Part shown: positions 18,501 to 24,500 of the stretch, in pieces | Position numbering within the stretch: the first letter of the stretch is position 1 | Layout: every line of letters starts with the position of its first letter | Assembly: GCF_056712565.1 (NCBI RefSeq) | Contig: NZ_CM160072.1 | Strand: one strand, 5' to 3' | DNA length: 64,000 bases | Position numbers: made by a program

Positions 18501-21500
18501 GGGAATAGATTAAATGGTGTTCTGTTTATACAGGTTTATTTGTAGATCAACAATTTGGCATTTCTAAACAGATGTTTGAACGTTGCCAAATGTCTTGACA
18601 ACACAAGAAAAGGGCTTGCTATGCCACGCATTACACGAAATAAGGCTATAAAAACAAAATAAATTTTAAAATTTGCACAAACGAGAGAACTCATTCGACA
18701 AATAATAGATTAATTTTTAGCCAACAATTTCTGATGGTGCTCTGTAAGCCGCATTACACAAGGATTTGCGAAAGTGATGTAAAAGTGAAGAAAGTAAGAA
18801 TTGAACTTTTAAGCTACTTTTTCATTGAATTTTTAGTATGGAATTACACAGGAATAAGTTAGGGATATTCTATGATTTACACAGGGAATATAGGGGGATT
18901 ATGGCACACACATAGAAAGACATTACACAGAGTGCTATGTGACAAATGGATGTAACGAGAGGTTACATTCAGCTATCTGAAATGCTCTCTGTAAGAAAGT
19001 TGGTAGTAACGATATGTTACATAGACTAATTATTGAATGTAACGATATTACACATCGGAAGATGATTGAATGTAACGGTAGCTCACAGTGAACTAGGGGT
19101 AGGTCATAGTGAACTACCCCCACAGAATTCTGTTACCCCTATCAAGTCTGATACCCCTACCCCTATCAAAACTAATACCCGATAAGAATAAATAACACCT
19201 AGGAAATGATTTCCGATCTATTTAGGAAGTAACCTAGGAAGTGGTTTCCTACCTACTTAGGAAATGAGTTCCTACCTACCTAGGAAATGAGTTCCACCAA
19301 TACTATAATTAAATACTATAATTAAATAATATAAATAATATTCTTTATACTATATAGGTCATAGTGAGCTAGGGGGTAGGTCACTGTGAGCTACCCCCAC
19401 AGAATTCTGTTAATCTTAACTTTTAAAGAGATTTTTACCCTAACAAAATTCTGTTACCCCACCCTAACAGAATTCTGTTAGACACCCCCACAGAAAACTG
19501 TTAGACACCCCCACAGAATTCTGTTACCTATTAGATCATTTATTAAATTACTTATTAAATTATAATATTATATATTTATTTATATGATCTTTTGCCTTCC
19601 GGCGTTAGCTTCACTCTCTGGCAAGCAGCCTTACTCCGCTACCTTTGGGCTTCGTGGCTGGCCCGTTCCGCTCACACCGAAAGCAAAGCGTTACTTTCTT
19701 CGTGTAACTATCGTTGGCGGTAACGCCCACGAAGAAATACTATTGCGCTGTGCGCAGAAGAGTAATCACCTAACCAATCATACTGATTGCTTATGTGTTA
19801 ACTCTATCTCTCTACCTCGTAATTACCCTCCTACACTTAATAACTCTCGTTATTCTCTGTAGTTGTGTAATTACTCGAAGAGAGAGCGGCTAAAGCTCAA
19901 TTACACTCTGCTTTCCTCGTGTAATTTCACTAAGCCTCAATACAATTCCACTTCCTACATTCTGTAGTCGTGTAATTGTTTTCGGTGGAAAAGCCAGAGG
20001 CGACACCGAAAGAGAATTCTGATCTTATTAATCTTATCTATCTTAGTTATCTTACTTACTTATCTTACTTACTTTATCTACTTTATTATTAATAATAGCT
20101 TTATAAGCTCTCTGTAGCTCTCTGACGCAAGAAACAGCATTCAGGAAGGGAATCACCTTAGAAAAGTGTTCTTTGCGTCATAATGTGTTTTATGAAGGAT
20201 TCAGAGGTGTTTCATAACAGGAGTGTATAGAGGATACTTTAATTAATTAAAAATAAGGGGTCTAAATGCTTCTCTAACAGCATTAAGCAGGGTAGGGAAT
20301 GGAAACGCATTGTCTACATATATAAACTCACTACAGGGCTTTACAGAGCGTTTTATAAAGTGACTCTCTATCTTATATCTACCATCACCTTTTCATATAC
20401 CTAACAAATACAAAATAAGCCCCTTAAATAAGCCTCTGGCGAGCTAAACAGCCATTAGATAAGGCAATGTATTGCTTTTATCAAAATCTCGTTAGAACGC
20501 GTTTTAGAGCGTTTTAGCGGATAATGAAGAATAGCACTACACAGAAGAGCACGAATTGCTAAGAAAAAATGTAAGTGCATGAAAAAGATCAGATTTTTTA
20601 TGAAAAGGTATTGACAAATGTTTCTTTATATGTAATAATAGGTATTAGAGGGACAGAAAACATTCTTCTCTAAATAATCAAAATCAATGCACTTTGAAGC
20701 CGTCAGGCTTGCAAGGTGTTTTATTTCTTTTAACTGAATAAGGAGTTTTTTATGAAATGGTTTACACCGGAACACGTCGTCCAGGCATTTAAAAAAGGTG
20801 AGCTTACACGCCACCAAGTAGTAATGAACCGTAATATGGCAAGGAGTCGAGGTTATCCAGAGCGTGAAAAATGTTTTGACGATGCACTGAAAATTATTGA
20901 TGAACTGCGTAAGAAAGAAGCAGAGAAAGAATAATAGACAAGAGGAGGAGAAAACTATGAGCGAAACTAAGAAACCAATTCCGCGCACTTACCTACACGT
21001 TGACCCTGAAATCTTCAAGGTTTTATTTGCTGAAGCCAAGAAAAGGCAAATTATGGTCAGTGATTTGATGTTAGAAATCATTACTGAAGCAGCAGAGAAC
21101 ATCAAACAAAAAAAGGGTAAGTGATCCTCATTCACTTTAGTAGCGCATTAAGCGTGATTTATAAGGAGATTTTTAATGATTAATGAAGAACAATTTGTAA
21201 AAGTTCCTATGTGGATTCTAAAAATAAGCCAAGTAAACGGGCATAAATTTACAGATAGTGCTAAAAACCTTTACTGCTATCTGAAAGGGTTTGATCGTGC
21301 ATTTCCCTCTTACGCTAAGATAGGCGATGTTTTTGGCATAACACCAAGAGCAGCAGAGGAAAGGGTTAAGAAATTGCTCGAAATGGGGTTAATTATAAAA
21401 GATGCACGACCAGGAAGTTCTAATGTCTATCAAGTGGTAGATATTCCACAAGAAGAAGCTAGACAAGAAGCCAAAACACAACAAGAAGCTACCGTTAAAG

Positions 21501-24500
21501 CTGTTCCTGAACAGCTTCCCCCTACGGAAGATAATAAACAGCCTTCTTTTGATGTTCTTGATGATTGGGATGCGCCTTTGCCGTGGGAGACGGAAGAAAC
21601 ACCTGTTTCATCAAGTGAAAAGGTAGCTAATGATAATGAGGAGGATGTGTTAGAGAATTTTGCCTCTCTTATCTGCCGGCAGAAGAATACCAGAACAGCA
21701 GGGGCATCATTTATAGAATTTGCAAATTCACTAGCTTATAGACACGGGCTAAAACGACCAAATGGTATTGAGGCATATTTTTCTAAGCATTACCCAAATG
21801 TATACGAAGACTTTGATATTCCATTTTAATAAGGAGGGTTATGATTCAATATTTAGTAAAAAATCAAGTAGACAGAATTCAGTGTAATGACACAGGAAAA
21901 CGCATCTATGAAACGCTTGCTTTCCTATACAAAGGAAAGCCAACACCGCTAAAATATAGCGATGTGTTACATCGAGCAGGGTGCTCTGAAGATGGTTTAA
22001 AATTCTGGCTGAAACAGCTATCAAACTTCGGTGTTATTGAGATTAAAGAATTATCTTTCTCTACATTCAATCTCAAAAGACTAGATAAAGTAGAATTCAT
22101 CTATTCCACTCTCTAAAATCTCTCTATGTAATTAAAATATAAAAGGAAAACATTATTATGATAGTAGCTATGTATTGGTTATTGTTCTTTCTCACGTTAG
22201 AAACATATTTCGGGGTGTTTTCCTTTAAAAGAAAAGGAAAAATAAATAATGGCAAAAAGAAAAAACAACGTTGTTAAGAAAATCGGGGATTCAGCTTCTC
22301 TTCTAAGTAAACCTAAATCTATTCTAAGACGTAAAGACTTTAAAGAGCTAGTTACGCTCACCAAGCATAATAGCGCCCCTGGCGAATGGAAAACAGAGAT
22401 CATAGAACATTCTCCCTCTGTGCCTTGTGGAGATGAATATATCGCATTACAAGAAATCTTATCTTCAACACCTGGCGTATTCTGGAAACCTAGAAAAAGA
22501 AAAGAGTATATTGTTGATAGCTCTGATTTACGCAAATACCAGATTTTAGGATTTGAAGACTATAACCACTACGTTGGTTATCTCGCCACCAATGGCCTAA
22601 ATAATTTAGTTCCTGAATTCCAAATTTTAGATAATGCTGATTATGGAGACTTTTAATATGAACAAAAACACGTATGACACAATTTACTCACTAATTAATT
22701 ATTATGAGGATGATTACCTCCTGCCTTTAAACCGTGCTGAACTTGATGCATATAAAGAAAATACGCCAGCGGCATTAAATGAGGCGTTTAAACACTGGGA
22801 TTTAGCCCTTTCTGCCTTGGAGCACCTTTTTAAAAGAATAGAGATGCTCTGTAAGCGTGAGAACGCATACCTGACAGCCGATCAGATATGGGAGTTATCA
22901 AACTGGATAGAAGATATTGAATCTGATGTTCGCTATGTGGGAGATGGCCTTATCGAACTCGCTCAACGCTTAGGCGCTATCACAGAAGAATAAAAAAGCA
23001 ACAAAAAAGTTGTAAAATATCTTGACATTCCATCTATTGTATGTTAATATAATTATATGGGGTGATTATTTTTCCTTTATTGGTTCGATATTAAAAATTC
23101 TTCTTGTCGTTAAAGGGGAGTAAAATCTCCGCTCCCCGCTTCTCCTCCTTAAGTAAATACTGTGTCATTATTACCTCTTTCCTTTGTTATGCATACATCT
23201 TGGAGTATGCATAACATAGGGTAATTACATAGGTACAAGTTAATAAAAGGCGGCTTTAAATGCTGCCTTTTATTTTGCCCGTTATGCAACTTAAAAGTTG
23301 TATTTCTTACTTTAAACAAGGTAACAAGGTTTATATAAATGTTGTTCTTAAACGATAAAGAGCAAATCATCAAATATAAAGATGAAATGCTGAAAATTAA
23401 TCCACAAATTACCGAAATGGTAGCTAAATACGCTGGGTGTTCTGTCGAGGAAGTAGAAAGATGTGTTGAAAAATATTTTTCTCCTTCTTCTCCGTCTACA
23501 CCTTCCCTTAATGAATTAATCAAATTAAAAGCTAAGGAGATTACTAAATGATTATTGATTTAGACGCTCTATTTCCAGTCAGAAAGACTTTCATAGATCT
23601 GGTAAGTTATTGTACTGATCCGTTTGCCTCTGTAGAAAACAAGGTTTTTGCTTCTCTTCCTGCTGATGTTGAATGCGGAGACTTGATCACCAGCACTGGC
23701 GCTAAATATGAATCAGGAGATGATATCTATGTTGTTATGAGTGAATTTGTAACGGCTGGAGACAACAAGCCTGTAGATGTTTTACGTAGCAATGCTGGGC
23801 TTGTATGCATCAAAGCTGATGCGCTGAATGCTGTAAGTGAAGCAGCAAAAACAGCATTAATTAAAAAAGGCTTTCAGCTTGAAGGGTTCCACTCTGTTTT
23901 CACTTCTTAATAAAAGGAATAATAATAAATGATTCTAGGTAATGATTACGTTGATTTAGCTCCGCTGTTCTCTGCGCATAGCACTAGAAACTATCTGCTT
24001 TCTACTCTGGATTTTACGGATTCTGTAGGGGTTACATCTCATAAAGTAGCTGTTTCCCAGCTTGTCGAAAGCAACGAATCTCTCTTTAACAAAGAGACAA
24101 GCCGTTTTAGTTCTGAACACAACGTCACTAAGCGAGAACAAGGTAAAGAATGGCTGATTCAAATCCCTTACTTCCTGCGTGAAGATGTGATTAGACCTTC
24201 TGATGTTCAAGGCAAACGTAAACCAGGTACTGATTTCCAGGAAACACTCACTGATATTTATGCTGACTATGTTGCTAAACACCACGTAGCGTATCAGCGT
24301 ACAAAAGAGAGCGTATTGGCTGCTTCTCTGTTTAGTGGTCGCACCTATACCCGGAAAACTGATGATGTTCTTATCGAGTGGGGCAAGCTGTTTAACGTAT
24401 CAGCTATGAAAGCCACTGTGAACGCTTCCAGCACTGACACCACGAAGATTTTTAAAGAATTTGATCAGATTGCTACTGACATTATCGAAAAAGCACAAAG

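Follow-up and report, generated by a model that had tools for sequence, protein, structure and literature searches.

How can a genomic island that carries no replication enzymes of its own be replicated, and through which of its genes? The question is raised by a low-GC island of 12.8 kb (16595-29359) integrated at a tRNA-Thr gene (thrW) in an Escherichia coli chromosome (contig NZ_CM160072.1, RefSeq assembly GCF_056712565.1). Positions refer to the window, which is the whole stretch of 64,000 nucleotides that was analyzed. Pfam and PHROG searches found no helicase, primase, polymerase or terminase domain in any open reading frame (ORF) of the island, which bears out the original prediction, made from the sequence alone, of a four-ORF operon lacking both helicase and primase. 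It is probable that these four ORFs form the replication and regulation module of a thrW satellite of lytic Stephanstirmvirinae phages and that ORF3 is its RepA-like initiator.

The evidence comes primarily from comparison with three islands of ~95% identity, in which only two segments fail to align: the iteron region (18975/19116-19529) and the start of ORF3, from codon 3 to about codon 100-120, which encodes its N-terminal domain (N-domain). The features of the two regions are as follows.

19006-19350: upstream "fossil" origin cassette, with iterons of types IV, III, I and II, then four of type V, then an AT-rich stretch
19115-19139: extra copy of the type I iteron
19197-19290: four type V repeats, ACCTAGGAAATGAnTTCC, within the fossil cassette
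19392-19530: cognate array of five type I iterons, CCCCCACAGAATTCTGTTA, at a spacing of 23-44 bp; predicted binding site of the ORF3 N-domain
19520-19590: AT-rich (12% GC), immediately following the cognate iterons; predicted DNA-unwinding element
21176-21829, + strand: ORF3, 217 amino acids (aa); Shine-Dalgarno (SD) sequence AAGGAG at 21163-21168
21183-21463/21534: hypervariable specificity segment of ORF3
21185-21457: N-terminal winged helix-turn-helix (wHTH) domain of ORF3, residues 4-94
21458-21634: disordered acidic linker of ORF3, residues 95-153
21638-21811: helical C-terminal domain (C-domain) of ORF3, residues 155-212
21803-21826: tail of ORF3, YEDFDIPF, residues 210-217, resembling the tip of SSB, the protein that binds single-stranded DNA

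Eighteen loci could be sorted into five N-domain types and five iteron types, paired as follows.

Rep type I (the window): iteron CCCCCACAGAATTCTGTTA
Rep type II: iteron CCCCTATCAAnnnTGATA
Rep type III: iteron GGTAGGTCAnnGTGAnCTAGGGG
Rep type IV: iteron GTAACGATAnGTTACA
Rep type V: iteron ACCTAGGAAATGAnTTCC

The cassette adjoining the AT-rich element agrees with the Rep type in 18/18 loci, and the suggestion that the Rep-like protein is paired with the upstream iterons is thereby upheld. At the level of sequence, this co-variation proves a specific protein-DNA pairing between the ORF3 N-domain and the iterons. Matches to the type I iteron number 6, compared with 0.17 expected, and no DnaA box was found in the origin region. 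The cognate iterons sit 1.65 kb upstream of ORF3 and 1.1-1.7 kb from the operon promoter. The layout is that of the iterons and unwinding element of a predicted Rep-dependent origin, whose specificity module appears to be swapped as a unit. ORF3 is very probably the origin-binding initiator of the satellite, and its N-terminal winged helix would bind the type I iterons at 19392-19530, which abut the 12%-GC unwinding element.

The origin and noncoding region gave no relevant match among 50,697 phage records, and the possibility that the iterons represent a phage origin was rejected on that ground. Between the origin and the operon promoter lies ~1 kb (19590-20600) that is 89-95% conserved among the satellites and has no convincing ORF and no Rfam match; a packaging site for the helper terminase and a noncoding RNA are candidates for its function.

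Structure and profile comparisons of ORF3 also point to replication initiators. AlphaFold predicts a confident winged-helix N-domain (predicted local distance difference test score, 85-93), a disordered linker and a four-helix C-domain. The top Foldseek matches of the N-domain are the RepA_N plasmid initiators 4pql, 4pt7 and 5kbj, together with 4ro3, the N-terminal domain of RepA from PLE, a Vibrio element that resembles phage-inducible chromosomal islands (PMC7145576). Alignment with the staphylococcal RepA_N initiators extends over 108 columns, compared with ~60 columns for regulators. The modeled fold resembles those of RepA_N, PLE RepA and the DnaD N-terminal domain. Residues 12-175 match a PHROG annotated as "replication initiation protein" at 7.6e-11 and a second initiator family at 1e-7, and the winged-helix head also matches O-like and DnaD-like families (PHROGs 270, 391, 678 and 7882).

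The original prediction had described the 217-aa product as a winged-helix, Rep-like protein with a long acidic linker and had proposed structure and profile searches as a check; the best matches in both are replication initiators, and residues 95-153 are predicted to be disordered. Its closer assignment of the N-domain, as HTH_36/Rep-O-like, was correct in part. HTH_36 (PF13730) is recovered at 20.0 bits (E 6e-4), below the Pfam cut-off of 25, whereas PF04492 is unmatched and the O-like similarity is restricted to PHROG families. HTH_36 exceeds the Pfam threshold in the sister allele L023 (31.5 bits) and in phage nuclease heads described below (43.6 and 55.9 bits).

ORF3 belongs to an operon of four tightly packed ORFs, with gaps of 22, 51 and 11 nt from ORF1 to ORF4, and the coordinates and SD sites first reported for all four were recovered without change.

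20611-20639, + strand: sigma-70-like promoter, TTGACA-17-(TG)AATAAT, upstream of ORF1
20752-20934, + strand: ORF1, 60 aa; SD AAGGAG at 20740-20745, 6 nt before the ATG
20957-21124, + strand: ORF2, 55 aa; SD GAGGAGGAG at 20942-20950
21841-22116, + strand: ORF4, 91 aa; SD AAGGAGGG at 21831-21838
22249-22993, + strand: ORF5 (135 aa) and ORF6 (111 aa), conserved across the family

The promoter is close to consensus (11/12 matches). The same four genes are called by PGAP (RefSeq) on an identical island, and the ratio of nonsynonymous to synonymous polymorphism (pN/pS) across satellite alleles is 0.19 for ORF1, 0.12 for ORF4 and 0.35 for the C-terminal part of ORF3. In addition, distant relatives of the island retain homologues of ORF1 and ORF4 at 31-41% identity. 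These comparisons indicate that the four ORFs are real genes under purifying selection and not chance ORFs. ORF5 and ORF6 are probably on the same transcript.

The helpers are likely lytic myophages of the Stephanstirmvirinae, namely phi92-like Justusliebigvirus and phAPEC8-like Phapecoctavirus. These phages, with muut, inny and Mt1B1_P17 among them, are strictly lytic members of this subfamily, with genomes of 146-151 kb. The island shares 99.6% DNA identity with phage muut at 20946-21183, over ORF2, and 86% with Mt1B1_P17 at 21099-21529, over the head of ORF3; exchange of DNA as recent as this implies that the island and the phage come together within one cell. ORF2 and the linker may act as homology arms for the exchange of heads between phage and satellite, the ORF2 stretch being the left arm. 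Furthermore, phi92-like and related phages have tape measure and tail-tube-initiator genes that share ~70% DNA identity with the 609-aa and Dit-like genes of the island; between the Dit-like proteins of the island and of Mt1B1_P17, identity is 55%. Lytic helpers supply their own replisome, as in PLE and its helper ICP1. The earlier expectation that replication relies on recruited machinery, given the lack of an own helicase and primase, is thus retained, and the likely helper can now be named as a lytic member of the Stephanstirmvirinae.

The same phages encode nucleases that mirror the satellite Rep proteins. Each nuclease consists of two satellite-type DNA-binding heads and a T5orf172-like domain (GIY-YIG). 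The heads are of types I and V in Mt1B1_P17 (QNJ49226; 83% and 85% identity) and in BI-EHEC (79% and 90%), of types II and V in muut (88% and 91%), and of types IV and V in inny (88% and 91%); the identities of ORF3 to the QNJ49226 and BI-EHEC proteins were taken over residues 1-118/134. For the second head, the satellite counterpart is the N-domain of a type V Rep (locus L012), with 85-91% identity. No type I or type V iteron was found in the Mt1B1_P17 genome (150 kb), which, with the lack of an origin match in the phage records, leaves the nuclease heads without a target in the phage itself. As a counter-defense, these helper nucleases, which are similar to the Odn nuclease of ICP1, would cut the satellite origin, and the resulting pressure would drive the swapping of matched iteron and Rep-head cassettes.

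In BI-EHEC, the intact gene for the two-headed T5orf172 nuclease (321 aa; OL505078.1, ~130.1-131.1 kb; L029, 1201-2166) is unannotated in GenBank. Rep type III is the commonest, with nine of the 18 typed loci (L006, L007, L010, L011, L015, L016 and L018-L020). No type III first head was seen in the phage nucleases, and III is the only type besides V for which none was found. The commonness of type III is consistent with escape from nuclease targeting, in what is a small sample.

The fossil cassette is arranged like the complete array of satellite L012 (type V), and the AT-rich stretch of the cassette has 17% GC (19280-19369). Composite origins of this kind are present in this island and in L016: the cognate cassette comes after an L012-like upstream array that ends in four type V iterons and an AT-rich stretch of its own. 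On replicon replacement, a new cassette seems to be added without removal of the old one, so that satellites changing their replicon would keep the former iterons ("stacking"). Type V iterons kept in composite origins would explain why a type V head is found in all four nucleases.

The ORF3 reading frame ends in YEDFDIPF, directly followed by the stop codon. An acidic-[ILV]PF ending is present in 116/120 close homologues and in 29 of 68 distant representatives (down to ~30% identity), in which it is kept though the region before it cannot be aligned. The tail of ORF3 has the features of the C-terminal tip of SSB (SSB-Ct; DDDIPF, PMC5872125), namely, an acidic run followed by [IL]-P-F at a free C-terminus. 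The helper SSB (Mt1B1_P17, QNJ49289; L026, 5862-6794) contains PPMDFDDDIPF. In QNJ49289 this motif is not C-terminal, as 15 more residues (APIGLQYGRNFLHCF) follow it, which could mean that the tail is extended and has a second motif, or that there is a problem with the annotation or the sequence. A literature search, which was not exhaustive, found no initiator previously reported to have an SSB-tip-like tail.

As no helicase, primase or polymerase is encoded in the island, an initiator bound at the origin must recruit foreign replisome proteins. The disordered acidic linker would connect the DNA-binding head to the small helical C-domain, and the SSB-tip-like tail, displayed at the melted AT-rich element, would recruit replisome proteins that bind SSB tips. 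Possible partners of the tail are PriA, chi and DnaG of the host or the helper's own proteins, the helper SSB having the same motif. The proposal that the tail is an SSB-tip mimic pulling replisome proteins to the melted origin, combined with origin stacking after a replicon switch, is tentative and we place it somewhat short of probable.

Several points weigh against ORF3 being an initiator that acts in this way. The co-variation does not prove replication, as a centromere, packaging site or operator would co-vary likewise. The window allele lies under the HTH_36 cut-off, and the RepA_N and Phage_rep_O models are unmatched in Pfam (RepA_N at E up to 1). The C-domain has no recognizable relative, the SSB-tip reading rests on an eight-residue motif, and a literature search (not exhaustive) shows no experimental follow-up on this satellite family. 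Finally, some repression step is implied by the strong, near-consensus sigma-70 promoter that precedes an initiator gene in this integrated element.

The need for a repressor could be taken to mean that ORF3 is itself a transcriptional regulator and that the repeats are operators for satellite genes and not an origin, which would agree with the RefSeq/PGAP names of ORF3 ("transcriptional regulator" or "HTH domain-containing protein"). This is improbable, because the repeats are 1.1-1.7 kb away from the operon promoter and stand directly before the 12%-GC stretch, in the classic arrangement of iterons and unwinding element, and because the best profile matches are replication initiators and DnaD-like loaders. 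Moreover, the best long structural alignments (108 columns) are to RepA_N initiators, compared with ~60 columns for regulators, and the conserved SSB-tip-like tail would have no role in a repressor. The repressor may be one of the small proteins ORF1, ORF2 and ORF4.

It is also quite improbable that ORF3 and the repeats constitute a partition or packaging module, with ORF3 as a centromere-binding or TerS/Rpp-like wHTH protein that marks DNA for the helper terminase and with replication started elsewhere or by recombination. An island without a terminase must somehow be recognized by the packaging machinery of its helper, wHTH centromere-binding proteins (AspA, pNOB8) are among the Foldseek matches, and a nuclease directed against a packaging site would also be an effective counter-defense. 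Nevertheless, Pfam and PHROG searches revealed no similarity to TerS, ParB or ParG families, the PHROG matches are specific to replication initiators, and the AT-rich element adjoining the cognate cassette suits an origin. The closest characterized parallel, PLE RepA and Odn, is likewise a replication system (PMC8263062, PMC7145576).

A third possibility, that ORF3 chiefly serves as an anti-nuclease decoy in which a copy of the head, without the nuclease, shields the repeats from the phage enzyme, would suit its 79-88% identity to the first nuclease heads and its lack of a nuclease domain. It is hardly credible, as ORF3 is present in all satellites, also in those of type III, which is the commonest and has no observed counterpart among the phage nuclease heads, the C-domain and tail of ORF3 are conserved and absent from the phage proteins, and repeats would not be retained merely for protection. 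All three explanations fit the origin layout, the initiator profile matches and the conserved tail less well than does an ORF3 that initiates replication.

The remaining proteins of the operon are less readily assigned. ORF1, ORF2 and ORF4 gave nothing significant in searches of Pfam, PHROGs and PDB sequences, and the original description of "three small DNA-binding-type proteins" is not established. ORF1 has no detectable similarity to known families in these databases, and ORF4, for which all helix-turn-helix (HTH) hints are sub-threshold, is possibly an HTH protein. Both are conserved, satellite-specific proteins. Two proteins of lytic phages, muut_153 and inny_185, share 100% identity with that of ORF2. 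ORF2 occurs as two alleles, with ~45% identity to each other and not tied to Rep type, and is absent in satellite L012. An AlphaFold monomer of ORF2, based on a shallow alignment, is extended at the N-terminus and otherwise forms a single uninterrupted helix (residues 17-54), and hhalign against five ribbon-helix-helix (RHH) sequences gave an in-register alignment with 33% probability (P 4.6e-4); ORF2 may be an RHH protein, an original suggestion that is likewise not established. Homologue searches with ORF2 and ORF4 returned only near-identical satellite or phage copies, which do not permit a deep alignment.

The borders and remaining genes of the island are as follows.

16595-16614, + strand: attL, 20-bp direct repeat ACTCCTATTATCGGCACCAT at the 3' end of the tRNA-Thr gene (thrW, 16538-16613)
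17820-18359, - strand: small serine recombinase gene, flanked by 16-nt inverted repeats (17699-17714 and 18461-18476)
23339-27839, + strand: morphogenesis genes (70-aa ORF, 120-aa decoration-like, capsid, 67-aa ORF, 609-aa tape-measure-like and Dit-like)
23929-24957, + strand: lambda gpE-like major capsid protein (Phage_cap_E, 7e-14)
Within 23339-27839, + strand: Dit-like baseplate protein (Dit_like, 1.6e-29)
27919-29253, - strand: tyrosine integrase
29340-29359, + strand: attR, second copy of the 20-bp repeat

Gene order in the island is serine recombinase, 2.4-kb noncoding region, the four ORFs, two small ORFs, morphogenesis genes and tyrosine integrase, and an Rfam scan of the island detected only the tRNA. 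In the window, proBA and thrW precede the island, and vatX and the vat autotransporter gene follow beyond attR. Right past attR, 30286-35066 encodes a MarR-family regulator (vatX-like) and a 1376-aa autotransporter of the serine protease autotransporters of Enterobacteriaceae (SPATE) type (vat-like). The satellite lies between thrW and the vat pathogenicity islet of a strain of the avian pathogenic or extraintestinal pathogenic E. coli (APEC/ExPEC) type.

The satellite capsid protein has 21.5% identity (E 1e-5) to that of Mt1B1_P17, and the tape-measure-like protein has 609 aa, compared with 662 aa in the helper. There are hints of a head made by the satellite itself, probably a smaller one, and of a changed tail assembly. 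Beyond the capsid and Dit-like matches and the homology of the tape-measure-like protein to helper genes, no structural or replication domain was recovered from the island.

The same gene order, at ~95% DNA identity, occurs in at least 20 loci at no fewer than three chromosomal sites, and the operon region has a match in 988/5426 complete E. coli genomes (~18%). The serine recombinase gene and its inverted repeats have the look of a Hin-type invertible switch, which was rejected, as no inverted orientation was found in ~19 loci; most of the recombinase segment is missing from L010, L011, L014, L017 and L021. In L006 and L007 (12630-13792), the decoration-like gene, which lies just upstream of that for the capsid, is disrupted by an insertion sequence element (transposase with an rve domain), and these copies are probably defective. 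The distant relative L023 (IMGVR_UViG_3300029170_000106) keeps the gene order of ORF1, a small RHH-like ORF, a Rep that ends in STIPF, ORF4-ORF6 and the morphogenesis genes. Its resolvase region is replaced by other genes, including one whose 153-aa product, encoded on the minus strand, shows weak hints of HTH_36 and PriCT.

To our knowledge, satellites of lytic phages are understood in mechanistic detail only for Vibrio PLE and ICP1. The E. coli family is a second such system, in a tractable host, for which a gene-level prediction made in 2023 becomes a testable map giving the predicted origin, the iteron expected for each of five Rep heads and the origin that a given phage nuclease head would cut. 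The map also offers a reason for the persistence of type V heads (the fossil iterons) and, in the SSB-tip-like tail, a candidate means by which an initiator lacking a helicase could recruit a replisome. If true, SSB-tip mimicry would answer how satellite initiators of the RepA type recruit a replisome. Phages of the phi92-like and phAPEC8-like groups are used against APEC and uropathogenic E. coli (UPEC) strains. Because such phages target APEC and UPEC and the island adjoins the vat toxin island in a strain of this kind, satellite interference and phage nuclease genotype could affect therapeutic host range.

Among known phage satellites, a P4-like identity was rejected on the basis of the absence of a primase/helicase domain (alpha) and of any sid/psu/delta or P4 family match; a cos site was not searched for. 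Phage-inducible chromosomal islands (PICIs) and capsid-forming PICIs (cfPICIs) were rejected because no alpA, pri-rep, terminase, protease or head-tail connector gene was found among the island ORFs. All of these are integrated phage satellites, and cfPICIs also encode their own capsid protein, but the helper of the present island is lytic and not temperate.

Initiators of the lambda O and DnaD-like kinds share with ORF3 a PHROG profile similarity and a flexible linker followed by a recruiting C-terminus. In contrast to lambda O, PF04492 is unmatched, the origin lies 1.65 kb upstream and not inside the initiator gene, and the island has no P-like or DnaC-like loader gene. The RepA_N plasmid initiators of Firmicutes (RepA of pSK41 and pTZ2162; 4pql, 4pt7 and 5kbj) provide the best long structural matches to the N-domain; they bind iterons, as is predicted here, and their C-terminal domain is thought to recruit replication proteins in a host-specific manner. 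ORF3 differs in that PF06970 is unmatched, its C-domain is unrelated in sequence and the iterons lie outside the rep gene.

PLE RepA and ICP1 Odn (PMC7145576, PMC8263062) are closer in biology. PLE is likewise a satellite of a lytic phage with its own replisome and makes use of the phage machinery (PMC7145576), its RepA shows neither helicase nor primase activity and has a winged-helix head like that of RepA_N, its iterons lie in a noncoding region of >2 kb, and Rep and origin are swapped as a module. Furthermore, Odn is a phage nuclease in which a Rep-like head and T5orf172 are combined and aimed at the origin. The two systems have no detected sequence similarity, capsid, tape-measure and baseplate genes are present in the E. 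coli satellites themselves, and the phage nucleases here are two-headed, with an identity of 79-91% between nuclease and Rep heads, compared with 42% in ICP1 and PLE. How PLE RepA recruits the replisome is explicitly left open in the PLE literature (PMC7145576).

The helicase-less design, originally regarded as unusual, therefore has precedent both in PLE RepA and in the family predicted computationally by Barth, Dunham and Seed in 2023 (PMC10448857), which comprises 224 putative E. coli satellites. The starting point of that study was the T5orf172 nucleases of Inny, Muut and Mt1B1_P17, with RepA_N-like heads (BI-EHEC is not among these three phages), and the nucleases were proposed to be Odn-like anti-satellite proteins by analogy with ICP1 Odn and PLE RepA (PMC8263062). 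The satellites were described as carrying decoration, capsid, tape-measure, baseplate and integrase genes and a "RepA" whose N-domain is modular; according to that study, no counterpart of the second DNA-binding domain of any of the phage nucleases could be detected in satellites, and iterons, origin, helicase and primase are unmentioned for these elements. The present island is likewise an att-flanked, tRNA-adjacent element of ~12-13 kb with a tyrosine integrase and with decoration, capsid, tape measure and baseplate genes, has no terminase, protease or pri-rep, and has a RepA N-domain that is mirrored in phage T5orf172 nucleases (83% in Mt1B1_P17 QNJ49226 and 79% in BI-EHEC). It is a member of this family, with no difference in kind, to which the present analysis adds the position of a predicted origin, a five-type iteron code, a type V match for the second nuclease head, composite origins and an SSB-tip-like tail.

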